DNA of 49,769 nucleotides from a virus (taxonomy: Duplodnaviria; Heunggongvirae; Uroviricota; Caudoviricetes), in IMG/VR virus record IMGVR_UViG_638341086_000008. One strand, given 5' to 3'. The position numbers were made by a program, and so were the translations under genes. A model generated the notes under the pieces. It was not told where the DNA came from. It saw only the letters and a program-made list of their open reading frames with translations, and searched no databases. Each line of letters starts with the position of its first letter. Positions within the stretch are counted from its first letter, which is position 1. Below are positions 131 through 37,536 of this stretch, piece after piece.

Positions 131-189
131 CTGAAAGTAACCGGCTCATTTAAACCGTCTGGTCTGTTTCCTCCGGCTCTACAAAAATA

Positions 190-867
190 ATGTCCATCAT
201 TTTTAATGGACACTATCGTATGAAACACCGGACCTGGATCACTGAAGCTTTACGTCTTCACTTTGAAGAACATTTACCCCGGGTTGTGGCCGGGCGTCGC
301 CTGAGTGTACCAAAATCAACAGTTTGTAGTATGTTCGTGCGCTTTCGGAGAGCTGGCCTTTCGTGGCCTTTGCCCGCAGGCATGTCGGAGCAGGAACTTG
401 ATGCCTGCCTTTACGGACAATTTTCCACGGTACCAGTCGTACGTCCTGAAAGCACCGTTATATCCGAAGCCCCCGTGGTAAAAAAACGTCCCCGGCGGCC
501 CAACTTCCCTTATGAGTTTAAAATCGCCTTAGTGGAGCAGTCACTACAGCCCGGAGCCTGTGTGGCGCAGATCGCCCGGGAAAACGGAATCAACGATAAC
601 CTGCTCTTCAACTGGCGCCATCAATACCGGAAAGGTGGCCTGCTGCCTTCCGGAAAAAATATGCCGGCACTGCTTCCCGTGACGTTAACGCCGGAGCCGG
701 ATAATAAAATCCCGGCCCCCGCACAGGAACCAGAGCAGATAAATACACCGTCCGACAGTCTGTGTTGTGAGCTGGTTCTGCCGGCCGGAACTCTCAGGCT
801 TAAAGGTAAACTGACGCCGGCGTTATTACAGACACTTATCCGCGAAATAAAAGGGAGCAGCCACTGA
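190..867 (+). CDS. tnpA: IS66-family accessory protein TnpA with an unusual ~95 aa N-terminal extension
   Basis: C-terminal half (PNFPYEFKIALVEQSLQPGACVAQIARENGINDNLLFNWR) matches the HTH of the other two IS66 TnpA copies in this window; the N-terminal part (..RAGLSWPLPAGMSEQELDACLYG) resembles an IstA-like HTH region. Confidence 0.7.
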   Translation: MSIIFNGHYRMKHRTWITEALRLHFEEHLPRVVAGRRLSVPKSTVCSMFVRFRRAGLSWPLPAGMSEQELDACLYGQFSTVPVVRPESTVISEAPVVKKRPRRPNFPYEFKIALVEQSLQPGACVAQIARENGINDNLLFNWRHQYRKGGLLPSGKNMPALLPVTLTPEPDNKIPAPAQEPEQINTPSDSLCCELVLPAGTLRLKGKLTPALLQTLIREIKGSSH

Positions 868-1214
868 TGATATCTCTCCCTGCAGGTTCGCGTATCTGGC
901 TGGTTGCAGGTATCACCGATATGCGAAATGGCTTTAACGGCCTGGCATCAAAAGTTCAGAACGTCCTGAAGGATGACCCGTTCTCCGGACACCTGTTCAT
1001 CTTCCGCGGACGCCGGGGTGACCAGATAAAAGTGTTGTGGGCTGACAGTGACGGACTGTGCCTCTTCACCAAACGCCAGGAGCGGGGCCGCTTCGTCTGG
1101 CCAGTCACCCGTGACGGCAAGGTGCACCTTACTCCGGCTCAGTTATCCATGCTTCTTGAAGGTATCAACTGGAAGCACCCGAAACGAACGGAACGCGCTG
1201 GAATCCGCATATAA
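867..1214 (+). CDS. tnpB: IS66-family TnpB (Orf2)
   Basis: 115 aa; ATGA overlap with tnpA; motif LVAGITDMRNGFNGLA...LFIFRGRRGD...LCLF conserved with the two other copies in the window. Confidence 0.85.
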   Translation: MISLPAGSRIWLVAGITDMRNGFNGLASKVQNVLKDDPFSGHLFIFRGRRGDQIKVLWADSDGLCLFTKRQERGRFVWPVTRDGKVHLTPAQLSMLLEGINWKHPKRTERAGIRI

Positions 1215-1233
1215 CCCGTTGTAAAGTGAGGAT

Positions 1234-2805
1234 ATGGACACCTCACTTGCTCATGAGAACGCCCGCCTGCGGGCACTGTTGCAGACGCAACAGGACACCA
1301 TCCGCCAGATGGCTGAATACAACCGCCTGCTCTCACAGCGGGTGGCGGCTTATGCTTCCGAAATCAACCGGCTGAAGGCGCTGGTTGCGAAACTGCAACG
1401 TATGCAGTTCGGTAAAAGCTCAGAAAAACTTCGTGCAAAAACCGAACGGCAGATACAGGAAGCACAGGAGCGAATCAGCGCACTTCAGGAAGAAATGGCG
1501 GAAACGCTGGGTGAGCAATATGACCCGGTACTGCCATCCGCCCTGCGCCAGTCTTCAGCCCGTAAACCGTTACCGGCCTCACTTCCCCGTGAAACCCGGG
1601 TTATCCGGCCGGAAGAGGAATGCTGTCCTGCCTGTGGTGGTGAACTCAGTTCTCTGGGATGTGATGTGTCAGAGCAACTGGAGCTTATCAGCAGCGCCTT
1701 TAAGGTTATCGAAACACAACGTCCGAAACAGGCCTGTTGCCGGTGCGACCATATCGTGCAGGCACCAGTACCTTCAAAACCCATTGCACGCAGTTATGCC
1801 GGAGCGGGGCTTCTGGCCCATGTTGTCACCGGGAAATATGCAGACCATCTGCCGTTATACCGCCAGTCAGAAATATACCGTCGTCAGGGAGTGGAGCTGA
1901 GCCGTGCCACACTGGGGCGCTGGACAGGTGCTGTTGCTGAACTGCTGGAGCCGCTGTATGACGTCCTGCGCCAGTATGTGCTGATGCCCGGTAAAGTCCA
2001 TGCTGATGATATCCCCGTCCCGGTCCAGGAGCCGGGCAGCGGTAAAACCCGGACAGCCCGGCTGTGGGTCTACGTCCGTGATGACCGTAACGCCGGTTCA
2101 CAGATGCCCCCGGCGGTCTGGTTCGCGTACAGTCCGGACCGGAAAGGTATCCATCCACAAAATCACCTGGCCGGTTACAGCGGTGTGCTTCAGGCCGATG
2201 CTTACGGTGGTTACCGGGCGTTATACGAATCCGGCAGAATAACGGAAGCCGCGTGTATGGCTCATGCCCGGAGAAAAATCCACGATGTGCATGCAAGAGC
2301 GCCCACCTACATCACCACGGAAGCCCTGCAGCGTATCGGTGAACTGTATGCCATCGAGGCAGAGGTCCGGGGCTGTTCAGCAGAACAGCGTCTGGCGGCA
2401 AGAAAAGCCAGAGCCGCGCCACTGATGCAGTCACTGTATGACTGGATACAGCAACAGATGAAAACACTGTCGCGTCACTCAGATACGGCAAAAGCGTTCG
2501 CATACCTGCTGAAACAGTGGGATGCACTGAACGTGTACTGCAGTAATGGCTGGGTGGAAATCGACAACAACATCGCAGAGAACGCCTTACGGGGAGTGGC
2601 CGTAGGCCGGAAAAACTGGATGTTCGCGGGTTCCGACAGCGGTGGTGAACATGCGGCGGTGTTGTACTCGCTGATCGGCACATGCCGTCTGAACAATGTG
2701 GAGCCAGAAAAGTGGCTGCGTTACGTCATTGAACATATCCAGGACTGGCCGGCAAACCGGGTACGCGATCTGTTGCCCTGGAAAGTTGATCTGAGCTCTC
2801 AGTAA
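1234..2805 (+). CDS. tnpC: IS66-family transposase TnpC (intact, 523 aa)
   Basis: N-terminal leucine-zipper-like region, CxxC...CxxC zinc-finger motifs, DDE-type core; full length with no frameshift, unlike copies 2 and 3. Confidence 0.85.
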
Positions 2806-2831
2806 ATATCAATACGGTTCTGACGAGTCGC

Positions 2832-4022
2832 TTACACCTGAAATACCATTTGCGCATCTGCATGGCCCATCTGGTTTGCTATAAATGCCGGGTTAGCACC
2901 AGCTGTCAGCGACCAGCAGGCATAAGTATGTCTCGACTGATATGATTTTCGATGGCGGAGTCCGGCACGTTTTATCGCTGCGTCCCACATCTGCCTTATT
3001 GAGTCAACGGTAAAATGGTCACCATAATTTTTTACTCTCGCTGACACTTCAGGTTGAAAAACAAAGGTGCATTTTTGTTTTTCTGTTCTGCCATACTCTC
3101 TGAGGTGAACATCAATGATATGCTCTTTGCTCAGTCTCGTTAATGTCATCTGACTCCGGAGAGCGTCGATTGCTGGCTTAATAAGATGAATGACCCGATT
3201 GGTTCCCGCCTGTGTTTTTGGTACCGTGAAACGGTCTTTTGCTAAATTTCTCCTGATCATCATTGTTCCATTTTTCAGATCTATGTCCTCCCATCCAAGT
3301 GCACACAGCTCACCAGGGCGAACGCCAGTATAAACAGAAACACACCATAAATTTTTTGCTTGCTGATTTCTGCACGCATCGATAAGACGGATAAATTCCT
3401 CCCGCGCAAGAGGATCCGGAATGGTTCTTGATTCCTTTAATGGCGAGATCCCCTTAAACGGATTATCTGCCAGGTAACCGTTATCAACACCAAACTGGAA
3501 CACGGCGTTAAGATTTGTCATGTAATTATTTACAGTTACAGCCGTTCTCCCTGGTTGTGTAACAATATAGTTACTTTTGGGGATCTGGTATCCAGTCAGT
3601 AGCTCTTTACGAACCTCCAGTAATTTTTCTTTATTAATCGATGAGGCAAGATTTTTTTCACCGATTATGCTCAGGATATTTTTGATGACGGCACGGTATG
3701 TGTTGAGTGATGTTTTGGCGACTTCAGTTTCTTTCAGTGCCAGAAATTTTTCAGCCAGTTCTTTTATGGTTAAATCTTGTCGGGCCTCACCAAATTTTTC
3801 CAGATTGCGTGAGGAGGGAAACTGTTTTGCATAGTCGAAAACACCAGTTTTTATTGCGTAACAAACAGAGGAGCGTAGTTCACCTGCAACGCGCCTGTTT
3901 TTTGCTGTGTCAGGAACCCCCAGATTTTCCCTGACTCTTACGCCTTTATAAACAAACCAGATACGTAATTTCCCTCCATGGTTTTCCACGCCTGTCGGAT
4001 ATTTCATTTCAACTTCTCTCAT
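2832..4022 (-). pseudogene. int: Prophage tyrosine integrase, truncated at the C-terminus by IS66 insertion (stop codon supplied by the IS terminus)
   Basis: 396-aa ORF with integrase boxes (..RHTYACWSL.., ..MGHADAQMVFQV) ends at a TAA lying inside the IS end (2832..2834); native int sequence starts at 2836; the catalytic Tyr codon lies in the displaced fragment at 20..130. Confidence 0.8.
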
Positions 4023-4041
4023 TAGTTAGTGTGGCTTTTAG

Positions 4042-6837: not shown

Positions 6838-7146
6838 TTTGTTTTAACCTCATGACAGATTTAAGGATGAACAAATCCCTGCCATTGCTGGCATATAAGA
6901 ATGAAACCGGATATTTATTACGGAACTGTTTTAAAGACCTGCCGGGATTTCGATATTATCCTGGTGAATAACTTTATCGACCGGGTAACAGTTACCGGGA
7001 ATTTTCTGTTCGGTTGCTGCAGTCATACACTCCTGCATTGTCCTGTGAACACTGACTGCAATATCAACTGGCACTCCGGAAACAAGAAAAACTGAACCGC
7101 CCCGGGAATCCTGGAGACTAAACTTCCTGAGAAAGAGGTAAACAGG

Positions 7147-7473
7147 ATGACTAAAAATACTCGTTTTTCCCCTGAAGTCCGTCAACGGGCAGTCCGTATG
7201 GTTCTGGAAAGTCAGGGCGAATATGACTCACAATGGGCGACAATTTGTTCCATTGCTCCAAAGATTGGCTGTACGCCGGAGACTCTGCGTGTCTGGGTTC
7301 GCCAGCATGAGCGGGATACCGGGGGCGGTGATGGAGGGCTCACCACCGCTGAACGTCAGCGTCTGAAAGAGCTGGAGCGTGAAAATCGTGAACTGCGCCG
7401 CAGTAACGATATCCTTCGCCAGGCTTCCGCTTATTTTGCGAAGGCGGAGTTCGACCGCCTCTGGAAAAAATAA
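7147..7473 (+). CDS. IS629 OrfA (HTH/leucine zipper transposase subunit)
   Basis: 108 aa, [19 protein letters not shown]...; identical to the inverted copy at 17729..18055. Confidence 0.9.
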
Positions 7474-8360
7474 TGCCACTGCTGGATAAGCTGCGTGAGC
7501 AGTGCGGGGTCGGACCGGTATGCAGTGAACTGCATATTGCCCCGTCAACGTATTACCACTGTCAGCAACAGCGACATCATCCGGATAAACGCAGTGCCCG
7601 TGCGCAGCGCGATGACTGGCTGAAGAAAGAGATACAGCGCGTATACGATGAAAATCACAAGGTATACGGTGTGCGTAAAGTCTGGCGTCAGTTGTTACGG
7701 GAAGGTATCAGAGTGGCCAGATGCACTGTGGCACGTCTCATGGCGGTTATGGGACTTGCCGGTGTTCTCCGGGGTAAAAAGGTCCGTACGACCATCAGCC
7801 GGAAAGCCGTTGCCGCAGGCGACCGCGTAAACCGTCAGTTCGTGGCAGAACGACCTGACCAGCTGTGGGTGGCTGATTTTACTTACGTCAGCACATGGCA
7901 GGGCTTCGTCTATGTGGCGTTCATCATTGATGTGTTTGCCGGATACATTGTGGGGTGGCGGGTCTCATCGTCCATGGAGACGACATTCGTGCTGGATGCA
8001 CTGGAGCAGGCGTTATGGGCCCGTCGACCGTCCGGCACGGTCCATCACAGTGATAAAGGTTCTCAGTATGTATCGCTGGCCTACACACAGCGGCTTAAGG
8101 AAGCCGGATTACTGGCATCAACAGGAAGTACAGGCGACTCGTATGACAACGCGATGGCGGAGAGCATCAATGGTCTTTACAAAGCGGAGGTAATACACCG
8201 TAAGAGCTGGAAAAACCGTGCAGAAGTGGAACTGGCCACACTCACGTGGGTGGACTGGTATAACAATCGACGATTGCTGGAAAGGCTGGGCCATACTCCT
8301 CCGGCAGAAGCAGAAAAAGCTTATTATGCTTCCATCGGAAACGATGATCTGGCAGCCTGA
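7473..8360 (+). CDS. IS629 OrfB (DDE transposase catalytic subunit); probably expressed as OrfAB by -1 frameshift in the A6 run at 7464..7469
   Basis: 295 aa with DDE integrase core; reading frame is -1 relative to orfA; identical to the copy at 16842..17729. Confidence 0.9.
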   Translation: MPLLDKLREQCGVGPVCSELHIAPSTYYHCQQQRHHPDKRSARAQRDDWLKKEIQRVYDENHKVYGVRKVWRQLLREGIRVARCTVARLMAVMGLAGVLRGKKVRTTISRKAVAAGDRVNRQFVAERPDQLWVADFTYVSTWQGFVYVAFIIDVFAGYIVGWRVSSSMETTFVLDALEQALWARRPSGTVHHSDKGSQYVSLAYTQRLKEAGLLASTGSTGDSYDNAMAESINGLYKAEVIHRKSWKNRAEVELATLTWVDWYNNRRLLERLGHTPPAEAEKAYYASIGNDDLAA

Positions 8361-8431
8361 GTTCACAGATAAAACACTCTCCAGGAAACCCGGGGCGGTT
8401 CAGTATACGGCCATTTATACAGGAAAAGCCT

Positions 8432-8965: not shown

Positions 8966-9181
8966 TTAATCAGTAATGATGACATTTGCTGCTGCAGGAC
9001 CTTTAGCACCACTCTCTATAGAGAAGGTAACCTTTTGACCTTCAAATAAGGTTCGATAATTATCATTCTGAATCGCAGAAAAATGCACAAACACATCTTT
9101 ACTACCATCAACAGGAGAAATAAAGCCGAAACCTTTATCAGCGTTAAACCATTTTACTAAACCAGTCATTTTATTTGACAT
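8966..9181 (-). CDS. cspB: Cold-shock protein CspB-like (CspA family)
   Basis: 71 aa, [21 protein letters not shown]... with RNP1/RNP2 cold-shock domain motifs. Confidence 0.85.
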
Positions 9182-9481
9182 TCTACATTCCTTAACTTGA
9201 GCCTTTCGGCATAAATGGTTTGCATAACAGAAACGACTTCGTACTTAATTGGAGAGACTCAAAGAAGGAATAAGTGAATAACACCTGAAATGAGAACTGC
9301 TTTAGTAAACTACTTCGTATATCGTCTGTTCTTCAAACCGACGCAATCATTAACGCATAGTTGAACATATGAAGCAATGTTTATTTTAGACATCCAGCCA
9401 TCTTCAACCCCATCAAAAAACTATAGCTTTCTTCAGGAACGTGTGTATAGTGCGCCAAGTTATCAGTATTAAGGAATTTTT

Positions 9482-12972: not shown

Positions 12973-13260
12973 TCAGAGAATGCGTTTGACCGCCTCGCTA
13001 TATACTTCCGAGCGTTCTCTTTTCCCAACAGAAATCACGAAAACGACAACTTTCTCGTCTATAACCTGGTATACAAGGCGATAGCCTGAAGACCGGAGCT
13101 TAATCTTGTAACAATCAGGCATACCACGGAGCTTGTTTGCTTCAATCCGGGGTGACTCAAGTACTTCAACCAGCTTCTTTTTCAACTGTTCACGTACCGT
13201 CGAGCCCAGCTTTCGCCATTCCTTTAGTGCCCGCTCGTCAAAATCCAGAAAATACGCCAT
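12973..13260 (-). CDS. relE: RelE mRNA interferase toxin
   Basis: 95 aa, MAYFLDFDERALKEWRKL...; ATGA overlap with relB (shared position 13260). Confidence 0.9.
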   Translation of the reverse strand: MAYFLDFDERALKEWRKLGSTVREQLKKKLVEVLESPRIEANKLRGMPDCYKIKLRSSGYRLVYQVIDEKVVVFVISVGKRERSEVYSEAVKRIL

Positions 13261-13499
13261 CAGAGTTCATCCAGCGTCACACGTACTGGCTTAGGATTAC
13301 GAAGCCGTTCTTTCACTATCTCCACAAGTTCAGCATCTTCATCACTCAGGAGTGTCTGTTTGAACGGCAAGCGTTCATTGTCAGCGATATACTCGAGCAT
13401 GAGACGAAGCGCTTCAGAAGGAGTTACACCCATTTTTTCAAGCGCGGCGTAAGAACGCGCTTTAAGTTCATCGTCAATACGCAGGTTAATGCTACCCAT
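13260..13499 (-). CDS. relB: RelB antitoxin
   Basis: 79 aa, MGSINLRIDDELKARSYAALEKMGVTPSEALR...; RHH-type antitoxin upstream of relE. Confidence 0.9.
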   Translation of the reverse strand: MGSINLRIDDELKARSYAALEKMGVTPSEALRLMLEYIADNERLPFKQTLLSDEDAELVEIVKERLRNPKPVRVTLDEL

Positions 13500-13829: not shown

Positions 13830-14101
13830 AGGAACGTAGCACGTTTTATGCAACACCCGCATGCGGCAGAAAATTATTGCCGAACGTTTACCCCTGTCAA
13901 CAAGCTTTACTTTCTGAGGCGCGCCAGCCCGCGAGGAAAACAATCTGAACATCAAACAATTAATGACACAAGAAATACGATTAAAGATTTTTTTGTGCAT
14001 GCCGATAGTGCTTTTTGTAAGCGTAAACTGACCGCCGTATGTAGCCATCAGACGAGAATTGGTAACTTAGACGCCCATCTGATATAGACGGACATCTAAG
14101 T

Positions 14102-14527
14102 ATGGAATTACAGGACTGGCGAAAAGAACCTCGTAAAAACTATTCGAATGAATTCAAACTTCGTATGGTGGAACTGGCATCACAACCTGGAGCTTGTGTT
14201 GCACAGATTGCACGTGAAAATGGCGTCAATGATAATGTTATTTTCAAATGGCTCAGGCTCTGGCAGAACGAAGGGCGTGTTTCGCGGCGTCTTCCGGTAA
14301 CGACCTCTTCTGACACTGGCGTTGAATTATTACCTGTAGAAATAACGCCGGATGAGCAGAAAGAACCTGTGGCGGCCATTGCGCCGTCTTTATCCACTTC
14401 CACTCAGACCAGAGTCAGTGCCAGTTCCTGCAAGGTGGAATTCCGTCACGGTAACATGACGCTGGAAAATCCATCGCCAGAGCTGCTCACAGTGTTGATC
14501 CGTGAACTGACCGGGAGGGGAAGATGA
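14102..14527 (+). CDS. tnpA: IS66-family TnpA (copy 2)
   Basis: 141 aa; HTH region ASQPGACVAQIARENGVNDNVIFKWLR. Confidence 0.8.
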   Translation: MELQDWRKEPRKNYSNEFKLRMVELASQPGACVAQIARENGVNDNVIFKWLRLWQNEGRVSRRLPVTTSSDTGVELLPVEITPDEQKEPVAAIAPSLSTSTQTRVSASSCKVEFRHGNMTLENPSPELLTVLIRELTGRGR

Positions 14528-14874
14528 TCTCACTCCCATCAGGTACCCGTATCTGGCTCGTTGCCGGCGTTACCGATATGCGTAAATCCTTCAACGGACT
14601 GGGAGAACAGGTACAACATGTGCTGAATGATAATCCCTTCTCCGGTCACCTGTTTATCTTCCGTGGCCGACGGGGTGACACCGTCAAAATTCTTTGGGCT
14701 GATGCTGATGGTCTGTGCCTGTTCACCAAACGCCTGGAGGAAGGCCAGTTTATCTGGCCTGCGGTACGTGACGGCAAGGTATCCATTACCCGCTCGCAAC
14801 TGGCAATGCTCCTCGATAAGCTGGACTGGCGTCAGCCAAAAACATCCAGCCGTAACTCACTGACAATGTTGTAA
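14524..14874 (+). CDS. tnpB: IS66-family TnpB (copy 2)
   Basis: 116 aa; MISLPSGTRIWLVAGVTDMRKSFNGL... conserved with the other copies; ATGA overlap with tnpA. Confidence 0.85.
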   Translation: MISLPSGTRIWLVAGVTDMRKSFNGLGEQVQHVLNDNPFSGHLFIFRGRRGDTVKILWADADGLCLFTKRLEEGQFIWPAVRDGKVSITRSQLAMLLDKLDWRQPKTSSRNSLTML

Positions 14875-14904
14875 AAAACTCCTGACCGCATTATAAAAAC
14901 GGTC

Positions 14905-16517
14905 ATGAGTCAGAAATACCTCATTCGCATCGCAGAGCTGGAAAGGTTGCTCTCTGAGCAGGCTGAAGCCCTCCGTCAGAAAGACCAGCAACTGAGTCTG
15001 GTTGAAGAGACGGAAGCCTTCCTGCGCTCTGCACTGACACGTGCCGAAGAAAAGATCGAAGAAGATGAACGGGAAATAGAACATCTGCGGGCTCAGATAG
15101 AAAAACTGCGCCGGATGCTGTTCGGTACCCGTTCTGAAAAACTGCGTCGTGAAGTTGAACTGGCTGAGGCTCTGCTGAAACAACGTGAACAGGACAGCGA
15201 TCGTTACAGTGGGCGGGAAGACGATCCTCAGGTTCCCCGCCAGTTGCGACAGTCGCGCCATCGTCGTCCGTTACCGGCACACCTTCCCCGTGAAATACAC
15301 CGCCTGGAGCCAGAAGAAAGCTGTTGCCCGGAGTGTGGCGGTGAGCTGGATTATCTGGGGGAAGTCAGCGCTGAACAGCTGGAACTGGTGAGCAGTGCCC
15401 TGAAAGTGATCCGCACAGAACGGGTAAAAAAAGCCTGTACAAAATGTGACTGTATTGTTGAAGCACCGGCGCCGTCCCGCCCGATAGAGCGTGGTATCGC
15501 GGGCCCCGGATTACTTGCCCGCGTGTTAACGGGAAAATACTGCGAACATCTGCCACTGTATCGTCAGAGTGAAATCTTTGCCCGCCAGGGTGTCGAACTG
15601 AGCCGGGCCTTACTCTCCAACTGGGTTGACGCGTGCTGCCAGTTAATGACACCGGTGATGATGCCCTGTACCGTTATGTAATGAACACCCGCAAGGTTCA
15701 CACTGATGACACACCGGTAAAGGTACTGGCACCGGGTCAGAAAAAGGCGAAAACAGGGCGTATCTGGACGTATGTCCGGGATGATCGCAATGTGGGTTCG
15801 TCATCTCCTCCAGCGGTCTGGTTCGCGTACTCGCCGAACCGGCAGGGGAAACACCCGGAGCAACACCTCCGCCCCTTCCGGGGTATCCTGCAGGCGGATG
15901 CGTTCACAGGTTACGACAGGTTGTTCAGTGCAGAACGTGAAGGTGGTGCACTGACAGAAGTTGCGTGCTGGGCCCATGCCCGGCGAAAAATCCACGATGT
16001 ATACATCAGCAGCAAAAGTGCGACGGCAGAAGAAGCCCTGAAGCGAATCAGTGAACTGTACGCCATCGAGGATGAAATACGGGGATTACCGGAGTTAGAG
16101 CGTCTTGCCGTCAGGCAGCAGCGAAGCAAAGTGTTACTGACGTCGCTGCATGAATGGATGGTGGAGAAGAATGGTACGCTGTCGAAAAAATCCAGACTGG
16201 GCGAAGCGTTCAGCTATGTACTGAATCAGTGGGATGCCCTCTGTTATTACAGTGATGACGGTCTGGCGGAGGCGGATAATAATGCTGCGGAAAGAGCGCT
16301 TCGTGCAGTCTGTCTCGGAAAGAAAAACTTTATGTTCTTTGGCAGCGATCACGGCGGCGAGCGTGGAGCACTGTTGTACGGGCTGATCGGCACCTGCCGT
16401 CTGAACGGTATCGATCCGGAAGCGTATCTGCGCCATATCCTGAGCGTACTGCCGGAATGGCCTTCCAACCGAGTTGATGAACTCCTGCCATGGAACGTAG
16501 TACTCACCAATAAATAA
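14905..16517 (+). pseudogene. tnpC: IS66-family transposase TnpC (copy 2), interrupted by a frameshift near 15633..15681
   Basis: Two overlapping ORFs (14905..15681 and 15633..16517) together cover the full TnpC alignment seen in copy 1; the frame changes where copy 1 reads ..[14 protein letters not shown]... Confidence 0.75.
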
Positions 16518-16570
16518 GCGTCAATACGGTGCTCCGTTGACGCTTACTGCTTTTTTAAAAGGAGAAATCT

Positions 16571-16799: not shown

Positions 16800-16841
16800 T
16801 GAACCGCCCCGGGTTTCCTGGAGAGTATTTTATCTGTGAAC

Positions 16842-17729
16842 TCAGGCTGCCAGATCATCGTTTCCGATGGAAGCATAATAAGCTTTTTCTGCTTCTGCCG
16901 GAGGAGTATGGCCCAGCCTTTCCAGCAATCGTCGATTGTTATACCAGTCCACCCACGTGAGTGTGGCCAGTTCCACTTCTGCACGGTTTTTCCAGCTCTT
17001 ACGGTGTATTACCTCCGCTTTGTAAAGACCATTGATGCTCTCCGCCATCGCGTTGTCATACGAGTCGCCTGTACTTCCTGTTGATGCCAGTAATCCGGCT
17101 TCCTTAAGCCGCTGTGTGTAGGCCAGCGATACATACTGAGAACCTTTATCACTGTGATGGACCGTGCCGGACGGTCGACGGGCCCATAACGCCTGCTCCA
17201 GTGCATCCAGCACGAATGTCGTCTCCATGGACGATGAGACCCGCCACCCCACAATGTATCCGGCAAACACATCAATGATGAACGCCACATAGACGAAGCC
17301 CTGCCATGTGCTGACGTAAGTAAAATCAGCCACCCACAGCTGGTCAGGTCGTTCTGCCACGAACTGACGGTTTACGCGGTCGCCTGCGGCAACGGCTTTC
17401 CGGCTGATGGTCGTACGGACCTTTTTACCCCGGAGAACACCGGCAAGTCCCATAACCGCCATGAGACGTGCCACAGTGCATCTGGCCACTCTGATACCTT
17501 CCCGTAACAACTGACGCCAGACTTTACGCACACCGTATACCTTGTGATTTTCATCGTATACGCGCTGTATCTCTTTCTTCAGCCAGTCATCGCGCTGCGC
17601 ACGGGCACTGCGTTTATCCGGATGATGTCGCTGTTGCTGACAGTGGTAATACGTTGACGGGGCAATATGCAGTTCACTGCATACCGGTCCGACCCCGCAC
17701 TGCTCACGCAGCTTATCCAGCAGTGGCAT
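16842..17729 (-). CDS. IS629 OrfB (copy 2)
   Basis: Protein identical to 7473..8360. Confidence 0.9.
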   Translation of the reverse strand: MPLLDKLREQCGVGPVCSELHIAPSTYYHCQQQRHHPDKRSARAQRDDWLKKEIQRVYDENHKVYGVRKVWRQLLREGIRVARCTVARLMAVMGLAGVLRGKKVRTTISRKAVAAGDRVNRQFVAERPDQLWVADFTYVSTWQGFVYVAFIIDVFAGYIVGWRVSSSMETTFVLDALEQALWARRPSGTVHHSDKGSQYVSLAYTQRLKEAGLLASTGSTGDSYDNAMAESINGLYKAEVIHRKSWKNRAEVELATLTWVDWYNNRRLLERLGHTPPAEAEKAYYASIGNDDLAA

Positions 17730-18055
17730 TATTTTTTCCAGAGGCGGTCGAACTCCGCCTTCGCAAAATAAGCGGAAGCCTGGCGAAGGATATCGTTACT
17801 GCGGCGCAGTTCACGATTTTCACGCTCCAGCTCTTTCAGACGCTGACGTTCAGCGGTGGTGAGCCCTCCATCACCGCCCCCGGTATCCCGCTCATGCTGG
17901 CGAACCCAGACACGCAGAGTCTCCGGCGTACAGCCAATCTTTGGAGCAATGGAACAAATTGTCGCCCATTGTGAGTCATATTCGCCCTGACTTTCCAGAA
18001 CCATACGGACTGCCCGTTGACGGACTTCAGGGGAAAAACGAGTATTTTTAGTCAT
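17729..18055 (-). CDS. IS629 OrfA (copy 2)
   Basis: Protein identical to 7147..7473. Confidence 0.9.
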
Positions 18056-18645
18056 CCTGTTTACCTCTTTCTCAGGAAGTTTAGTCTCCAGGATTCCCGG
18101 GGCGGTTCACGCTGCCGTCAGAGGCAAAACAACCAAAACCGCCGAAGGAATGCTCACCAACATGCTCGGAGATATTGCAGCAGAAGCTCAGCTTTATGCT
18201 GAAATTGCTGACGAACGCTACATCGCAGGAGTGACTTGTCAACAGATCTATGAATCTTTAAGAGATAAAAAGCATCAAATGTAGGGTAATATTAAATCGG
18301 AACATTTACATCGCGGAATGTAAAATTTGAATAAAAAGGACTCTTCCATGAGCCAAAATTCCTGAAATCTTAAGGGTAAGATAAAAGGTCTTAATCAGAA
18401 TGACACGTTTTATTAATAAATAAAGCTATTCTTTCATTGCTGTGTTTTTCTTTACAAAAGTAATCCTTGCTATGGGTGGTTAATCATGCGTTAATGGTGT
18501 TCTGGTTTGTTACAAATTTATCTGAAGCAGTCATTGTTATAATTTTATTATTTGTACCTCTTGAGATTTCCTTGTTGGTTTTTCTCTCTGATATTTTTTT
18601 CGGACCATTCTGCCCAAGGGCTAATTTCTTCAAAAGGTAATAATT

Positions 18646-30897: not shown

Positions 30898-33800
30898 TTT
30901 GGGGATTGATGCGGCAGAGTTTAAAAATGAAATTCCCCGTATCAAAAACCTTCTGAATCGTGCAGCCAGCGATGCAGAACGGTCTTCTGCCCGTATGCAG
31001 CGTTTTATGGAGCGTCAGACTCAGGCCGCCCGGCAGACAACGCAGGCGGCTTCTTCGGCTGCAACAGCCGCATCCGTCCATGCGCAGACGGTGGAGAAGA
31101 ACGCACAGGCTCATGAACGCATGGCCCGCGAGGTGGAGAAAACCCGCCAGCGCATGGAGGCGCTGAGCCAGAAAATGCGCGAGGAACAGGCGCAGGCCAT
31201 GGCTCTGGCGGAGGCTCAGGATAAAGCGGCTGCTGCGTTTTATCGTCAGATTGACAGTGTGAAACAGGCCAGTGCGGGGCTGCAGGAATTACAGCGTATT
31301 CAGCAGCAGATCCGACAGGCCAGAAACAGTGGCGGGATTGGTCAGCAGGATTATCTGGCGCTGATTTCTGAGGTTACTGCGAAAACCCGTGTTCTTACAC
31401 AGGCTGAGGAAGAGGCTACCCGACAGAAAGTGGCGTTTATCCGTCAGCTTAAAGAGCAGGCAACCCGCCAGAATCTTTCATCTTCTGAGTTGCTTCGTGC
31501 CAAGGCAGCCCAGCTGGGGGTAAGCAGTGCTGCAGAAGTGTATATCCGCAAAATGGAGCAGGCAGGAAAAGCCACGCATTCGCTGGGTCTGAAAAGTGCA
31601 GCAGCCCGCCAGGAGATAGGCGTTCTGATAGGTGAACTGGCCCGCGGCAATTTAGGGGCGCTGAGGGGATCCGGGATAACGCTGGCTAACCGTGCCGGAT
31701 GGATAGACACACTGATGTCACCGAAAGGCATGATGCTTGGCGGGGTTATTGGCGGTATTGCCGCGGCCGTCTATGGTCTGGGTAAAGCCTGGTATGACGG
31801 TCAGAAGGAGGGGGAAGAATTTAACCGCCAGTTGTCGCTGACGGGGCATTATGCCGGAGTCACTGCCGGGCAGCTGTGGACGCTCAGTCGTGCTATTTCC
31901 GGGAATGGTATCACGCAACATGCTGCAGCCGGTGCGCTGGCTCATGTGGTGGGGAGTGGTGCATTTCGTGGAAACGATATCGGTATGGTGGCGAGAGCTG
32001 CCGCACAGATGGAGCGATCGGTTGGCCAGTCGGTCAGCGATACCATAAATCAGTTTAAGCGGCTGAAGGATGATCCTGTAAATGCCGCGAAGGCTCTGGA
32101 CAATGAGCTGCATTTTCTTACTGCCACTCAGCTTGAGCAGATACGTGTCCTTGGGGATCAGGGACGGTCCAGTGAGGCTGCACGGATAGCCATGTCTGCA
32201 CTGGCAGAGGAAACCGGTCGGCGTACTGCGGATATTGATAATAACCTCAATGCGCTTGGCAGTACGCTGAAGTATCTGTCTGATTTGTGGAGTCGTTTCT
32301 GGGATGCGGCCATGAATATTGGTCGTGAAGACTCGCTGGATGAACAGATTACCGCTTTACAGGAGAAAGTGTCGTGGGCGAAAAGACTCCCCTGGACGGC
32401 ATCATCTTCTCAGGTTGAATACGATCAGCAGCGTCTTAACGATCTTCAGGAGAAAAAACGCCAGAAGGATTTGCAGGATGCAAAAGAGCAGGCAGAGCGG
32501 AATTATCAGGAGCAACAGAAACGACGTAATGCTGAAAATGCTGCACTGAACCGGATGAATGAAACGGAAGCAGCACGACATCAGCGTGAAATTGCGCGTA
32601 TTAATGCCATGCAGTACGCCGACCAGGCTGTCAGGGATGCGGCGATACAACGTGAAAATGAACGTTACGAGAAAGCCCTGGCATCCGGTAAGAAAAAAAC
32701 ACGCGAAACCCGTAATGATGAGGCCACCCGGTTATTGCTGCAGTACAGTCAGCAACAGGCACAGGTGGAAGGACAGATTGCTGCTGCAAGACAGTCAGCA
32801 GGCATTGCCACTGAAAAGATGACAGAAGCGCATAAACAGCTTCTGGCTCTGCAGCAGCGCATCAGCGATCTGGACGGGAAAAAACTGACGGCAGATGAAA
32901 AGAGTGTGCTGGCCCGTAAAGATGAACTGATTCAGGCACTGACGCTGCTGGATGTAAAACAGCAGGAGCTTCAGAAACAGACGGCACTCAACGATCTGAA
33001 GAAAAAAACAATTCAGCTGACCAGTCAACTGGCTGAAGAAGAGCGCGCTCAGCGTCAGCAACATGACCTGGATATCGCCACGGTGGGTATGGGTGATCAG
33101 CAGCGGCAGCGATATCAGGTACAACTGAGTCTTCGCCAGAAATACCAGCAACAGCTGGAGCAGTTGAGGCGGGATAGTGAGCAGAAAGGGACATATAACA
33201 CGGATGACTACAGAAAAGCCGAGCAGGCGCTGACGGAGAGCCTGAACCGACAACTGAATGAGAGTCGCCGTTACTGGCAACAGCTTGAAGTTGTGCAGGG
33301 TAACTGGAAAAACGGAGTCCTGCGTGCATTTCAGGATTTTACCGTGGATGCAGACAATACGGCAGGAATAGCAGAACAGGTGTTCTCGTCAGCCTTCAGC
33401 AACATGAGAAATGGCCTGGCAACTTTTGTCACTACCGGCAAACTCAACTTCAAATCCTTCACCTCTTCGGTGCTGTCAGATATGGCGAAAATCCTGGCGC
33501 AGGCAACCATGATGAAATCGATAAAAGGGATTGGCAGTGTACTGGGATTTGATCTCAGCAGCCTTTCCCTGAATGCCAATGGGGGGATTTATCAGTCTGC
33601 TGATTTGAGTCGTTACAGTGGCACGGTGGTTAACCGTCCGACGTTTTTTGCTTTTGCAAAAGGCGCGGGTGTGATGGGGGAAGCTGGACCTGAAGCCATT
33701 CTGCCACTGCGTCGTGGTGCTGACGGTAAGCTGGGGGTTGTGGCGGATATTGGTGGTTCAGGTATGGCGATGTTTGCCCCGCAGTACAACATCGAGATCA

Positions 33801-33934
33801 ATAACGATGGCACGAACGGGCAGATAGGTCCGGCTGCCCTGAAGGTGGTTTATGACCTTGGGAAAAAAGCGGCAGCGGACTTTATGCAACAGCAGGCCCG
33901 TGATGGTGGTCGGTTAAGTGGAGCATATCGGTAA
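30869..33934 (+). CDS. Tail tape measure protein (gpH-like)
   Basis: ~1020-aa, highly alpha-helical, Q/A/R/E-rich ORF in the canonical position; GGAGGTG ribosome-binding site. Confidence 0.85.
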   Translation: MDQIANLVIDLGIDAAEFKNEIPRIKNLLNRAASDAERSSARMQRFMERQTQAARQTTQAASSAATAASVHAQTVEKNAQAHERMAREVEKTRQRMEALSQKMREEQAQAMALAEAQDKAAAAFYRQIDSVKQASAGLQELQRIQQQIRQARNSGGIGQQDYLALISEVTAKTRVLTQAEEEATRQKVAFIRQLKEQATRQNLSSSELLRAKAAQLGVSSAAEVYIRKMEQAGKATHSLGLKSAAARQEIGVLIGELARGNLGALRGSGITLANRAGWIDTLMSPKGMMLGGVIGGIAAAVYGLGKAWYDGQKEGEEFNRQLSLTGHYAGVTAGQLWTLSRAISGNGITQHAAAGALAHVVGSGAFRGNDIGMVARAAAQMERSVGQSVSDTINQFKRLKDDPVNAAKALDNELHFLTATQLEQIRVLGDQGRSSEAARIAMSALAEETGRRTADIDNNLNALGSTLKYLSDLWSRFWDAAMNIGREDSLDEQITALQEKVSWAKRLPWTASSSQVEYDQQRLNDLQEKKRQKDLQDAKEQAERNYQEQQKRRNAENAALNRMNETEAARHQREIARINAMQYADQAVRDAAIQRENERYEKALASGKKKTRETRNDEATRLLLQYSQQQAQVEGQIAAARQSAGIATEKMTEAHKQLLALQQRISDLDGKKLTADEKSVLARKDELIQALTLLDVKQQELQKQTALNDLKKKTIQLTSQLAEEERAQRQQHDLDIATVGMGDQQRQRYQVQLSLRQKYQQQLEQLRRDSEQKGTYNTDDYRKAEQALTESLNRQLNESRRYWQQLEVVQGNWKNGVLRAFQDFTVDADNTAGIAEQVFSSAFSNMRNGLATFVTTGKLNFKSFTSSVLSDMAKILAQATMMKSIKGIGSVLGFDLSSLSLNANGGIYQSADLSRYSGTVVNRPTFFAFAKGAGVMGEAGPEAILPLRRGADGKLGVVADIGGSGMAMFAPQYNIEINNDGTNGQIGPAALKVVYDLGKKAAADFMQQQARDGGRLSGAYR

Positions 33935-34263
33935 TGGAGACGTTTCACTGGAAAGTGCGCCCGGATATGAATGTGGTATCAGAGCCGAAAGTGGTGACAG
34001 TGAAGCTGGGCGATGGTTATGAACAGCGTCGTGCGGCGGGACTGAATAACCAGTTGTCGATTTACAGCGTGACGATACGTGTTCGTAAATGTGAACACCC
34101 ATCTTTAAAAGCCTTTCTGGAACGGCACTGTGGCGTCCGCGCATTTCAGTGGACGCCACCTTATGACTGGAAGCCGATCAGGGTGGTTTGTCGTAAATGG
34201 TCGGCAAGCGTGGGGGCGTTGTGGGTAACCATAACGGCAGATTTTGAACAGGTCGTGGCATAG
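33934..34263 (+). CDS. Minor tail protein M
   Basis: 109 aa, METFHWKVRPDMNVVSEPKVV..GDGYEQR..WTPPYDW..; lambda gpM-like. Confidence 0.8.
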   Translation: METFHWKVRPDMNVVSEPKVVTVKLGDGYEQRRAAGLNNQLSIYSVTIRVRKCEHPSLKAFLERHCGVRAFQWTPPYDWKPIRVVCRKWSASVGALWVTITADFEQVVA

Positions 34264-34272
34264 GAGTCTCTG

Positions 34273-34971
34273 ATGCAGGATATTCCACAGGAAACACATC
34301 ATGAGACGACACGCCTCACTCAGTCAGCCCAGGTGGTGCTCTGGGAAATCGATCTGACAGTGGTCGGTGGAGAACGTTATTTTTTCTGTAATGAGCAGAA
34401 CGATAAAGGTGAGCCGGTCACCTGGCAGGGGCGACAGTATCAGGCGTATCCCATTCAGGGGACGGGATTTGAACTGAACGGCAAAGGCAGTGCTGCCCGT
34501 CCGACACTGACGGTTTCTAACCTGCACGGCATGGTCACCGGGATGGCGGAAGACCTGCAGAGTCTGGTCGGAGGAACGGTGGTCCGGCGTAAGGTTTACG
34601 CCCGTTTTCTGGATGCGGTGAACTTCGTCAACGGAAACAGTGACGCCGATCCGGAGCAGGAGGTGATCAGCCGCTGGCGCATTGAGCAGTGCAGCGAACT
34701 GAGCGCGGTGAGTGCCTCTTTTGTACTGTCCACGCCGACGGAAACGGACGGCGCTGTTTTTCCGGGACGTATCATGCTGGCCAACACCTGCACCTGGACC
34801 TATCGCGGCGATGAGTGCGGTTATCACGGTCCGGCGGTCGCGGATGAATATGACCAGCCAACGTCCGATATCACGAAGGATAAATGCAGCAAATGCCTGA
34901 GCGGTTGTAAGTTCCGCAATAACGTCGGCAACTTTGGCGGCTTCCTTTCCATTAACAAACTTTCGCAGTGA
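34273..34971 (+). CDS. Minor tail protein L
   Basis: 232 aa with C-terminal Cys cluster (CGYHG...CSKCLSGC), as in lambda gpL. Confidence 0.8.
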   Translation: MQDIPQETHHETTRLTQSAQVVLWEIDLTVVGGERYFFCNEQNDKGEPVTWQGRQYQAYPIQGTGFELNGKGSAARPTLTVSNLHGMVTGMAEDLQSLVGGTVVRRKVYARFLDAVNFVNGNSDADPEQEVISRWRIEQCSELSAVSASFVLSTPTETDGAVFPGRIMLANTCTWTYRGDECGYHGPAVADEYDQPTSDITKDKCSKCLSGCKFRNNVGNFGGFLSINKLSQ

Positions 34972-34976
34972 ATCCC

Positions 34977-35075
34977 ATGACAGAGACAGAATCAGCGATT
35001 CTGGCGCACGCCCGGCGATGTGCGCCAGCAGAGTCGTGCGGCTTCGTGGTGAGAACACCGGAGGGGGAAAGATAT
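34977..35075 (+). pseudogene. Tail assembly protein K, 5' fragment (33 codons) upstream of the IS66 insertion
   Basis: MTETESAILAHARRCAPAESCGFVVRTPEGERY, then the IS end GTAAGCG at 35076; reading frame resumes at 37537. Confidence 0.8.
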
Positions 35076-35112
35076 GTAAGCGTGCAGCAAGAACCGTATT
35101 GACGGGGATGTG

Positions 35113-36650
35113 TTATTCAGTCGGCAGTGCTACGCGCCAGGGGAGCAGTTCGCCGACCCGGTTTATCGGCCAGTCGGCTATGACGTCAAGGACATAGCGG
35201 AGGTAGCTTTCTGGCTCCACTCCGTTCAGTTTGCACGTCCCGATCAGGCTGTACAGCAGCGCTCCCCGCTCTCCTCCATGATCCGAACCGAAGAACAGGT
35301 AGTTTTTGCGGCCCAGACTGACCATCCGCAACGCATTTTCAGCGATGTTATTGTCCGCCTCAGCCCAGCCATCATCTGCATAGTACGTCAGCGCCGGCCA
35401 CTGGTTCAGGGCGTATGCGAACGCTTTCGCCAGTTCTGAGTGTCGCGACAGGGTTTTCATCTTTTCACGCAGCCAGCTTTCCAGGGATTTCAGCAGCGGT
35501 TTCGTTTTCAACTGACGTTCGGCAAGGCGCTGCTCCGCCGTCATTCCCCTTATCTCTGCCTCGATGGCGTACAGTTCGCCGATCCGTTTCAGCGCTTCCT
35601 CCGTCAGGGCTGACGGGGTGCGAACGTGCACATCGTGGATTTTACGGCGGGCGTGAGCCCAACAGGCGGCTTCCGTTATCCGGCCATCCCGGTACAGCTC
35701 GTTGAACCCGGCGTATGCATCCGCCTGCAGTACACCACTGAACCCCGCAAGATGGGTCTGCGGATGGATGCCTTTTCTGTCCGGGCTGTAAGCGAACCAC
35801 ACCGCCGGCGCCAGCGTTGACCCGGCGTTACGGTCGTCACGAACGTAGGTCCATAACCGCCCGGTCTTCGTTTTCTTATTGCCTGGCAACAGCACCGGGA
35901 CAGGCGTGTCATCAGCATGGAGCTTACCGTCAGTCAGCACATAGTCCTGAAGCGCTTCTTCCAGCGGTGACAGTAGCCGGCAGCATGCATCCACCCAGCC
36001 CGACAGCAGTGAACGACTCAGCTCCACGCCCTGGCGGCCGTACATTTCAGACTGGCGGTACAGCGGGGTGTGCTCTGCATACTTTGAGATCAGCACGCGG
36101 GCCAGCAGCCCCGGTCCTGCGATACCCCGCTCGATGGGCCGTGAAGGCGCGGGGGCTGCACGATGGCATCGCACTGAGTACAGGCATGCTTTTCACGTAC
36201 AGTCCGGATAACCCGGAAGGCGCTGCGCATCAGCTCCAGCTGTTCGGCGGCATCCTCACCCAGATAGCTCAGCGAGCCTCCACATTCCGGGCAGCATGAC
36301 GCTGCCGGCAGCAGCCGTTTTTCATCGCGGGGGAGTGATTCGGGGAACGGTTTGCGGGTGCGGGTTTGACGCAGCGGGCGCTGCACGGCCGGGTCGTCAA
36401 CCCGACCGGTAAGGGTATCACTTTCTTTCTGAAGTGCCTTCAGGTCAGCTTCCATCGGTGCGATACGACGGGAGACTTTTTCCGAGCGGCTGCCGAAGTT
36501 CATCCGGCGCAGCTTATCCAGCTGTGCCTGCAGATGGTCTATTTCGCGTTCACGCTCGTTCAGCTTTTCCTGCAGGGCACGGTTCAGCGCCTCCTGTTCG
36601 GCAAGGAGACGTTTCAGTGCATTGATATCGTCAGGAAGTGAGCTGCTCAT
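35113..36650 (-). pseudogene. tnpC: IS66-family transposase TnpC (copy 3), frameshifted near 36090..36174
   Basis: Two overlapping minus-strand ORFs (36090..36650 and 35113..36174) together span the TnpC alignment. Confidence 0.75.
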
Positions 36651-36698
36651 ACCGGGTATATTACCAGGCTCATTCAGCGTCGACCAGGATAAAGAGGC

Positions 36699-37046
36699 TT
36701 ACAACATAGTCAGGGACGTAAGCAGTCTTTTAGGCTGCCGCCAGTCGATACCTTCCAGCAGCATCGCCAGCTGTGCCGGTGTGAGGAACACTTTGCCATC
36801 CCGGGCTGACGGCCAGGCGAAGCGGCCGCGCTCCAGCCGTTTGGTCAGCAGACACAGTCCATCGCCGGTAGACCAGAGGAGCTTTACCTGACTGCCATTA
36901 CGCCCACGGAAGATAAAAACGTGACCTGACATCGGATCGTCTTTCAGCGTCGTCTGCACCTTTGCCGCCAGGCCGTTGAAGCCGTTTCTCATATCGGTGA
37001 TGCCAGCGACCAGCCAGATCTTTGTCCCTGATGGTAATGGGATCAA
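36699..37046 (-). CDS. tnpB: IS66-family TnpB (copy 3)
   Basis: 115 aa, MIPLPSGTKIWLVAGITDMRNGFNGL.... Confidence 0.85.
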   Translation of the reverse strand: MIPLPSGTKIWLVAGITDMRNGFNGLAAKVQTTLKDDPMSGHVFIFRGRNGSQVKLLWSTGDGLCLLTKRLERGRFAWPSARDGKVFLTPAQLAMLLEGIDWRQPKRLLTSLTML

Positions 37047-37447
37047 CGTTTGAGCTCCCGTATCAGCAGGTTCAGGATATTTTCGCTGATGGCACCATTC
37101 AGACGGAGTGATCCGTGCCGGAACGTCACTTCACAGCTGATATTGAGTGATTCAGGTGTCGCAGCAGCTACAGGTTGTGACCGGGGGGAGGTTGTAGGGA
37201 CAACATCTTCGGCATCAAGTGTTATCGGGAGCAGCTCAGGCACGTTGTTTTCTGTTGTTGAAGGAGGACGTAGTTTTCCTTCGCGCCAGTACTGGCGCCA
37301 CTTGAACAGCAAATTATCGTTGATCCCATGCTCACGAGCGAGTTGCGCTACGGAGATCTCTGGTCGATGCGAGAGTTCAACCATTTTGATTTTGAACTCA
37401 ACGGGATAATTAGGGCTTTTTTTACGCACTGCGGTTAATGATTTCAT
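37043..37447 (-). CDS. tnpA: IS66-family TnpA (copy 3)
   Basis: 134 aa, ..YPVEFKIKMVELSHRPEISVAQLAREHGINDNLLFKWR.. Confidence 0.8.
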   Translation of the reverse strand: MKSLTAVRKKSPNYPVEFKIKMVELSHRPEISVAQLAREHGINDNLLFKWRQYWREGKLRPPSTTENNVPELLPITLDAEDVVPTTSPRSQPVAAATPESLNISCEVTFRHGSLRLNGAISENILNLLIRELKR

Positions 37448-37536
37448 GGATAGCGTCCACCATATTTGGTGTCCACTATTCTCTCAGGAATTTCAGGATC
37501 TGCCAGACGGTGCTGAGACGACGCTTACAAAGATAT

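Follow-up and report, generated by a model that had tools for sequence, protein, structure and literature searches.

Gene Content and Boundaries of Three IS66-Family Elements

The 49,769-nucleotide stretch of DNA analyzed here (the window) contains a decayed, Qin-like lambdoid prophage of E. coli that lies between rspB and ydfJ. Three IS66-family elements, numbered copies 1 to 3 from the left, are inserted in the prophage integrase gene, upstream of flxA, and in tail gene K, respectively (table 1). The limits of the elements and the exact 8-bp target-site duplications that flank all three are as the first-pass annotation gave them, and the corresponding empty sites contain a single 8-mer. These duplications, which each element produced upon insertion, match those tabulated for two other IS66-family elements (PMC3281130). 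Imperfect terminal inverted repeats are present on all three elements, with GTAAGCG at five of the six ends and GTAACCG at the left end of copy 1, whose repeats read GTAACCGGCTC... and GTAAGCGACTC....

Table 1. Coordinates of the three IS66-family elements, their genes and target-site duplications, and the prophage genes that they split
Feature	Position	Strand	Remarks
Prophage tyrosine integrase, split by copy 1	20..4007	-	AR_0369 has the intact form (426 aa)
Copy 1 target-site duplication	129-136 and 2836-2843		ACCTGAAA
Copy 1, ISCro1-family IS66 element	137..2835	+	2699 bp, no interrupted ORF
Copy 1 tnpA, long form, 225 aa	190..867	+	NF038385, HTH_Tnp_1
Copy 1 tnpB, 115 aa	867..1214	+	Pfam TnpB_IS66, E = 1.2e-38
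Copy 1 tnpC, 523-aa DDE transposase	1234..2805	+	One ORF; Pfam, NF033517
Copy 2 target-site duplication	14009-14016 and 16548-16555		TGCTTTTT
Copy 2, ISEc23	14017..16547	+	2531 bp (reference 2532 bp)
Copy 2 tnpA, 141 aa	14102-14527	+	Identical to reference
Copy 2 tnpB, 116 aa	14524-14874	+	Identical to reference; 4-nt overlap with tnpA
Copy 2 tnpC, broken	14905..16517	+	ORFs of 258 and 294 aa
Lambda-type tail gene K (C40 peptidase), interrupted by copy 3	34968..38181	+
Copy 3 target-site duplication	35068-35075 and 37529-37536		AAAGATAT
Copy 3, ISEc22	35076..37528	-	2453 bp (reference 2454 bp)
Copy 3 tnpC, broken	35113..36650	-	ORFs of 186 and 353 aa
Copy 3 tnpB, 115 aa, TTG start	36699-37046	-	Identical to reference
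Copy 3 tnpA, 134 aa	37043-37447	-	Identical to reference

An uninterrupted empty site was found in other E. coli for each of the three elements. The empty site of copy 1 is the intact integrase gene of strain AR_0369, which contains a single ACCTGAAA. In the window this gene is divided into a 5' part (2836-4007) and a 3' remnant (20-136) by a break immediately preceding the tyrosine of ...MVFQV/YGKWM, and copy 1 thereby removes 35 C-terminal residues of the integrase; the severed tyrosine is presumed from its near-C-terminal position to be the catalytic residue. At least 16 other short contigs carry a gene call for the same truncated integrase product. For copy 2, which is located 15 bp upstream of the flxA start codon, the empty site is found in strain F8704-2 between ydfV and flxA. 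For copy 3, intact C40-peptidase (tail K) genes match the reconstructed junction with 100% identity, and joining the N-terminal part of gene K (34968-35075) to the remainder (37537-38181) restores a single ORF. Full colinearity of the window with F8704-2 was considered and rejected given that only the right 31.6 kb are colinear and the left part is rearranged; the left-arm arrangement of the window occurs in no complete RefSeq E. coli genome.

Family Membership and Divergence of the Elements

The gene order tnpA-tnpB-tnpC noted earlier for each element is supported by the ORFs and by Pfam and NCBIfam assignments, and the tnpA and tnpB reading frames overlap by 1 or 4 nt. This is the standard IS66 layout: TnpA is a small helix–turn–helix (HTH) protein, TnpB has an accessory role and is encoded by a gene overlapping tnpA, and TnpC is the transposase, with leucine-zipper, zinc-finger, and DDE domains. 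All three TnpA proteins match the Pfam model HTH_Tnp_1, and the TnpB proteins of copies 2 and 3, which are 65-75% identical to that of copy 1, are labeled IS66 TnpB by PGAP. The TnpC of copy 1 and the intact reference TnpC proteins for copies 2 and 3 match PF03050 (E = 1e-97 to 1e-107), PF13005, PF13007, and PF13817; in copy 1 the Pfam matches are LZ_Tnp_IS66, zf-IS66, DDE_Tnp_IS66 (E = 2.5e-103), and DDE_Tnp_IS66_C, and the protein scores 477.9 bits against NF033517.

Because the three elements are only 59-64% identical in DNA, they are separate members of the family, and this mutual identity of about 60%, together with their separate PGAP labels, bears out the earlier view that they are not copies of one element. 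At the protein level, identity among the three is 51-65% for TnpC, 65-75% for TnpB, and 38-46% for TnpA. The names ISCro1, ISEc23, and ISEc22 used here are taken from PGAP labels on copies that are 99.9-100% identical. An element in NZ_CP148357.1 is 100% identical to copy 1 from end to end, many other elements differ from copy 1 at a single position, and the PGAP label on the transposase of its matches is "IS66-like element ISCro1 family". Copy 2 is 99.9-100% identical to ISEc23-labeled elements with one gap, and copy 3 is 99.9% identical to ISEc22-labeled elements. Near-identical PGAP-labeled copies are present in thousands of E. coli records, and the occurrence of identical copies at many different loci across genomes is indirect evidence of transposition. 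Hits covering at least 80% of the query were obtained in 1,492 (copy 1), 2,488 (copy 2), and 2,191 (copy 3) of 5,426 genomes, counts that include related IS66-family elements in addition to near-identical copies.

Only in copy 1 is tnpC uninterrupted, as first reported, but "intact" holds for the reading frame alone given that the TnpB of this element carries the substitution L71Q (A replaces T at 1078) at a position occupied by leucine in copies 2 and 3 and in most ISCro1-type copies. The activity of copy 1 is not guaranteed because of this substitution.

The N-Terminal Extension of the Copy 1 TnpA

The copy 1 TnpA is 225 aa in length, compared with 141 and 134 aa for the other two, and the extra residues are N-terminal. 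The first-pass annotation had noted this extension and its resemblance to an IstA-type HTH, and both prove to be real. The whole protein scores 293.9 bits against NF038385 (curated cut-off of 150 bits), with residues 13-206 aligned to profile positions 1-189 of 190; the extension itself accounts for positions 1-73 (E = 4e-27), whereas for the TnpA proteins of copies 2 and 3 the match is confined to positions 80-189 and the score lies below the cut-off. The usual HTH occupies approximately residues 100-150 (Pfam HTH_Tnp_1: residues 102-159), and the IstA-like N-terminal HTH occupies approximately residues 12-77 (about 223-420 in the window). The extension is conserved across Enterobacterales, with many invariant residues in TnpA proteins of 204-229 aa from Escherichia, Salmonella, Pantoea, Erwinia, Klebsiella, Yersinia, Serratia, and Edwardsiella, including about 20 invariant positions within residues 12-77 among proteins that are only 57-70% identical overall.

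The resemblance to IstA is based on an exhaustive phmmer search of 1.84 billion proteins and on reciprocal family matches. The extension matches the N-termini of other proteins with E values of approximately 1e-7 to 1e-5. Of ten hits tested, eight align with NF033546 (IS21 family transposase) starting at profile position 1, and a single one (P0154, 166.3 bits) passes the curated cut-off of 160. Nine of these ten proteins match NF038385 as well, in its N-terminal part (E = 1e-12 to 1e-16). An alignment reveals a motif common to the extension and the IS21-family N-termini, LRLxF..STV..RF..AGLSWPLP..L..LY. An AlphaFold2 model of the copy 1 TnpA (mean pLDDT of 65) consists of two confident helical (HTH) bundles separated by a disordered linker, with pLDDT values of 73-92 for residues 12-77. 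A Foldseek search of this model against the PDB returned nothing at E ≤ 0.001, IstA (8b4h) being listed among generic HTH proteins at E = 1.1-1.6; PDB sequences searched by phmmer and by profile gave no match, a Pfam scan found no domain in the extension, and a single-sequence NCBIfam scan did not reach NF033546.

These data bear on whether the extension could be an annotation artifact, with the true translation start near residue 98. We consider this very improbable: neither the ATG at 190 nor that at 220 is preceded by a clear Shine-Dalgarno sequence, and residues 1-11 are modeled with low confidence, but residues 12-77 combine invariant positions, the NF038385 match, IS21-family homologs, and a confident helical bundle. 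As to the start itself, some homologs that have Val or Leu at position 11 keep the sequence MSIIFNGHYR, which favors Met1 over Met11 as the probable initiator.

Judged by its sequence, copy 1 belongs to a long-TnpA subgroup whose extra N-terminal HTH is homologous to HTH-1 of some IS21-family IstA proteins. The long-form TnpA is already modeled by NCBIfam; a search of the available literature for IS66 with IstA or IS21 found no statement on the extension or on IS21 homology, and the link between IS21 and the IS66 TnpA may therefore be unreported.

Single-Base Deletions in the tnpC Genes of Copies 2 and 3

Copies 2 and 3 are each one base short relative to thousands of other copies, and comparison with reference copies confirms that their tnpC genes are frameshifted by single-base deletions at different positions. 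Copy 2 has lost one A at 15658 (AA to A; GGTGAATGATG to GGTGATGATG), and the frame is lost at TnpC codon 252 of 537, within the DDE domain as delimited in the intact reference. Copy 3 has lost one C at 36156 on the plus strand (GGGGGCC to GGGGGC), with loss of frame at codon 166 of 512, in the stretch that separates the zinc finger from the DDE domain, and its TnpC also carries a private substitution, Q65P (36457).

Both deletions are absent from 5,426 complete E. coli genomes and from approximately 4,500 and 11,700 matching places in other E. coli records; the copy 2 deletion occurs in none of 2,342 E. coli records, and the copy 3 tnpC variant has no full-length exact match among 4,837 records. 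Exact 40-41-mers across each frameshift are found in no GTDB representative genome, that of copy 2 also being absent from IMG/VR, and a 153-billion-gene index contains no entry for the truncated TnpC products. Given their absence from every other record searched, the deletions are private to this sequence and reflect either recent decay or consensus error; copies 2 and 3 would, after their insertion, have acquired the TnpC-breaking deletions or been assembled with them.

We give somewhat less than an even chance to the proposal that both frameshifts are consensus or assembly errors and that the actual genome has three intact elements. Multi-copy insertion sequences are the commonest place for read-based polishing to fail, and in both cases a short run has lost a single base (AA to A, CC to C beside G5), as in a third private deletion of like kind in an intergenic region of the window (AAA to AA, 46534). 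Neither tnpC deletion occurs in any other E. coli record, and F8704-2, whose near-identical prophage differs by only 6 SNPs in 31.6 kb, has the same ISEc22 insertion in intact form. However, the runs at the tnpC deletions are just two bases long, and the other repeats in the window (copy 1 and two IS629-like copies) show no indels relative to their references. The private Q65P of copy 3 also fits real decay, since substitutions are less likely to be consensus errors. That two of the three indels fall within the 3.15 kb of tnpC (p of approximately 0.01 if evenly spread) is compatible both with errors specific to repeats and with relaxed selection. A functional role for the frameshifts, either as programmed ribosomal frameshifting or as slippage-based phase variation, is very improbable, and we reject it. 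Phase variation was raised in the first-pass annotation, which proposed a check for homopolymer runs at the frameshift sites. Programmed frameshifting is used by some IS families other than IS66, for example IS3, and, according to a PGAP note, by the IS629-like copies in the window. The sites, however, are two-base runs (AA, and CC adjoining G5) rather than long homopolymers, which makes phase variation unlikely; they differ between copies 2 and 3, neither contains a slippery heptamer or a long repeat tract, and the reading frame runs through these sites without interruption in all other ISEc23 and ISEc22 copies examined.

If the deletions are real, copies 2 and 3 would probably no longer move autonomously. 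Given that the ends of both elements are intact, an intact sister elsewhere in the genome could still mobilize them in trans.

Interpretation and Comparison with Known Systems

The best explanation of the observed identities, boundaries, empty sites, lesion positions, and domain homologies is that three different catalogued IS66-family insertion sequences, an ISCro1-type element, ISEc23, and ISEc22, independently entered one Qin-like prophage, a reading to which we assign a probability of roughly 0.92. We saw no evidence contradicting the identification of the three elements. The initial observation is accurate but ordinary, the biology involved is already known, and its consequence is mostly limited to correct annotation. 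The prophage has served as a sink for insertion sequences, five of which make up approximately 21% of the length of the window. Jointly these five have knocked out excision (integrase) and tail assembly (gene K), along with the lysis genes (via IS629-associated deletions); with these functions lost, the prophage is locked in place. The tnpC lesions also call for caution, in that private single-base frameshifts in the transposases of multi-copy insertion sequences need a read check before a pseudogene is called.

The sharing of an IS21-type HTH with the long-form IS66 TnpA is of mild evolutionary interest. A second N-terminal HTH would give TnpA a tandem-HTH DNA-binding architecture, and we infer a role in DNA binding for the extra domain. 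More tentatively, and as a reading less likely than not, we speculate that the ISCro1-type long TnpA is a cross-family chimera in which an IS21-type HTH-1 is joined to an IS66 accessory protein to form a tandem-HTH end-binding factor, which may explain recognition of the divergent left end of copy 1 (GTAACCGG vs. GTAAGCG).

Among known elements, ISCro1, a relative of IS679 within the IS66 family, was first named in Citrobacter rodentium, in which 24 copies were counted (PMC3072379). Copy 1 is 100% identical over 2699 bp to ISCro1-family-labeled elements, has their set of 225-, 115-, and 523-aa ORFs, and shows no meaningful difference from them; the L71Q substitution in TnpB is also found in at least one other genome. 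Copy 2 is identical to ISEc23-labeled elements at 2531 of 2532 positions and encodes the same TnpA and TnpB, with one A missing at 15658, a loss seen in none of the other records searched. Copy 3 occupies a site in tail gene K at which E. coli O39:NM F8704-2 also has ISEc22, there without the deletion at 36156 or Q65P. The closest parallel to the TnpA extension is HTH-1 of the IS21 transposase IstA, which contacts the IS21 terminal repeats and reads a conserved block in them (PMC10122671). Residues ~17-80 of the copy 1 TnpA align to the extreme N-terminus of IS21-family transposases, including AGLSWPLP, although the solved IstA structure (8b4h) is too distant from this protein for a significant sequence or fold match. 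In IstA, HTH-1 is fused to a DDE transposase, whereas in copy 1 the corresponding domain is fused to an IS66 accessory protein.

Three Distinct IS66-Family Elements

In essence, the window holds a single Qin-like lambdoid prophage, bordered by rspB immediately to the left of base 1 and by ydfJ at 48.5–49.8 kb. Its three IS66-family elements (copies 1–3) each contain a small helix–turn–helix (HTH) gene (tnpA), a gene encoding about 115 aa (tnpB, an accessory gene), and a gene encoding about 520 aa (tnpC, the transposase gene) in the ORF listing. Reading of their ends shows that the coordinates assigned in the first-pass annotation are exact to the base. GTAAGCG opens five of the six termini, the exception being the left end of copy 1, which starts with GTAACCG; the terminal repeats are imperfect. 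That the 8-bp duplications are true insertion scars, and did not arise by chance, is shown by targets that lack the insertion and carry the 8-mer once, found for each element: the intact integrase gene of strain AR_0369 (copy 1), the ydfV–flxA spacer of E. coli O39:NM strain F8704-2 (copy 2), and C40-peptidase (tail K) genes that are intact and match the rebuilt junction at 100% identity (copy 3). Two further IS66-family elements tabulated (PMC3281130) match copies 1–3 in having 8-bp duplications.

Coordinates of the insertion sequences and of the interrupted integrase gene in the window
Feature	Window position	Strand	Gene set	Flanking duplication	Basis
Copy 1 (ISCro1-type)	137-2835	+	190-2805	ACCTGAAA	ends read directly
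Copy 2 (ISEc23)	14017-16547	+	14102-16517	TGCTTTTT	ends read directly
Copy 3 (ISEc22)	35076-37528	-	37447-35113	AAAGATAT	ends read directly
Prophage integrase, split by copy 1	20-136 and 2836-4007	-			
IS629-like (IS3-family) copy, 1310-bp type	7091-8402	+			
IS629-like (IS3-family) copy, 1310-bp type	16800-18109	-			

Pfam and NCBIfam bear out the IS66 architecture, with HTH_Tnp_1 in TnpA, TnpB_IS66 in TnpB, and leucine-zipper, zinc-finger, DDE_Tnp_IS66, and C-terminal domains in TnpC. In a Megablast search of 5,426 complete E. coli genomes, each copy had near-identical counterparts. In those matching copy 1 (100% identity), the PGAP label of the transposase is ISCro1 family; the elements matching copy 2 (99.9–100%) are labelled ISEc23, and those matching copy 3 (99.9%) are labelled ISEc22. 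At a query coverage of 80% or more, each element has matching places in 27–46% of the genomes, a count that takes in related IS66-family elements as well as near-identical copies. Pairwise identity among copies 1–3 is only 59–64% for DNA (TnpC 51–65%, TnpB 65–75%, TnpA 38–46%); they are therefore separate family members rather than copies of one element, as had been proposed. Copy 1 TnpB has Gln71 (CAG, window 1078) where most ISCro1-type copies and copies 2 and 3 have Leu; this variant is the annotated allele WP_000624629.1 of NZ_CP148357.1.

Frameshifts in tnpC

The earlier claim that the tnpC genes of copies 2 and 3 are frameshifted at different positions holds on alignment to intact references, each having lost one base. 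Copy 2 reads GGTGATGATG where the reference reads GGTGAATGATG (A missing at 15658), and its frame is lost at codon 252 of 537, within the DDE domain; copy 3 reads GGGGGCTG where the reference reads GGGGGCCTG (C missing at 36156), and its frame is lost at codon 166 of 512, directly after the zinc finger. Copy 3 TnpC also has a private substitution, Q65P (window 36457), in a predicted leucine-zipper helix. Searches with 61-nt probes centred on each lesion found the copy 2 variant in 0 of 2,342 matching records and no exact full-length match to the copy 3 variant among 4,837; neither variant was found in GTDB representative genomes, nor either truncated product in a 153-billion-gene index. Strain F8704-2 has ISEc22 at the identical gene K site with TnpC intact, and its prophage differs from window 18110-49769 by just 6 substitutions and 2 indels. 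Given this absence elsewhere and the intact ISEc22 of F8704-2, both lesions are private and recent.

We favor real decay as the origin of the two frameshifts, with a probability of roughly 0.6. That they are consensus errors is a serious though somewhat weaker contender, since all three of the window's private indels are one-base deletions in short runs; the third, AAA to AA at 46534 in the intergenic tfaQ–pinQ spacer relative to F8704-2, resembles the tnpC lesions in type and bears on the question. Against error, the runs at the tnpC lesions are just two bases long, the window's remaining repeated elements are free of indels, and copy 3 also carries its private substitution. The first-pass annotation had raised phase variation, should the lesions lie in homopolymer runs; with neither a repeat tract nor a slippery site at these two-base runs, and with the frame open in every other copy, phase variation and programmed frameshifting are not supported.

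The Long TnpA of Copy 1

TnpA of copy 1 has 225 aa, versus 141 and 134 aa in copies 2 and 3. The N-terminal extension noted at first pass is genuine coding sequence, as four lines of evidence indicate. Residues 13–90 alone match positions 1–73 of NF038385 (IS66-like accessory protein TnpA; E = 4e-27), of which TnpA of copies 2 and 3 match positions 80–189 only. Full-length homologues (204–229 aa, 56–90% identity) occur in Escherichia, Salmonella, Pantoea, Erwinia, Kosakonia, Klebsiella, Yersinia, Serratia, and Edwardsiella, and about 20 extension positions are invariant across them. AlphaFold2 models residues 12–77 as a confident helical bundle (pLDDT 73–92), followed by a disordered linker, the canonical HTH (100–150), and a C-terminal hairpin and helix.

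The suggested resemblance to the HTH of IstA, the IS21 transposase, is also borne out. Exhaustive phmmer against 1.84 billion representative proteins gave 418 matches at E ≤ 1e-3, many with 40–50% identity over residues ~17–80 and placed at the very N-terminal end of longer proteins. Ten of the latter were tested: eight match the IS21 family transposase profile NF033546 from its position 1, one exceeding the curated cut-off, and nine match the N-terminal part of NF038385 (E = 1e-12 to 1e-16). Alignment of the extension with IS21-type N-termini reveals a common motif, LRLxF...STV...RF..AGLSWPLP...L...LY. A fold search of the TnpA model against the PDB gave no significant match, and PDB sequence searches gave no matches. 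The solved complex of IstA shows its first N-terminal HTH in contact with a conserved stretch of the terminal repeats (PMC10122671); by analogy, we infer that long TnpA is a predicted tandem-HTH end-binding protein. The explicit IS21–IstA homology of its N-domain is the one mildly new point and is already covered implicitly by the curated NCBIfam model.

Decay of the Host Prophage

Copy 1 cuts the integrase at …MVFQV|YGKWM, immediately before the presumed catalytic Tyr, with loss of the last 35 residues. The exact truncated product is found on at least 16 short contigs of other assemblies (e.g., GCA_002462235.1 and GCA_041890435.1), and the insertion is therefore common to a lineage. Copy 3 splits tail gene K, and 15 bp separate copy 2 from the flxA start codon downstream of it. 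The segment 8403-14016 (cspB...relBE...ydfV), bracketed by the inverted IS629-like copies, is inverted relative to F8704-2, and about 0.3–1.1 kb of DNA adjoining these copies is missing (9130-9425, 15284-15778, and 17089-18167 of the F8704-2 locus, L004), which removes essD, rrrQ (the lysozyme gene), and flxA sequence at its 3' end. In F8704-2 (NZ_CP050998.1), a 288-bp ISEc23 right-end remnant (L004 7532-7819) adjoins a copy of IS629 and lies next to a truncated nleC, suggesting that ISEc23 was once there too and was rearranged by IS629. Qin-typical toxin–antitoxin and cold-shock cargo (relE/relB, hokD, cspB, cspF, cspI, and ydfK; window 12973-13499, minus strand, and neighbours) is kept despite the decay of phage functions.

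The initial observation is thus confirmed and its interpretation supported; the novelty of the case is low, the elements and patterns all being already known. Given its insertions, rearrangement, and losses, the prophage is in heavy decay and acts as a sink for insertion sequences, a known pattern that recalls C. rodentium, where over half of all IS elements sit on other mobile elements (PMC3072379).
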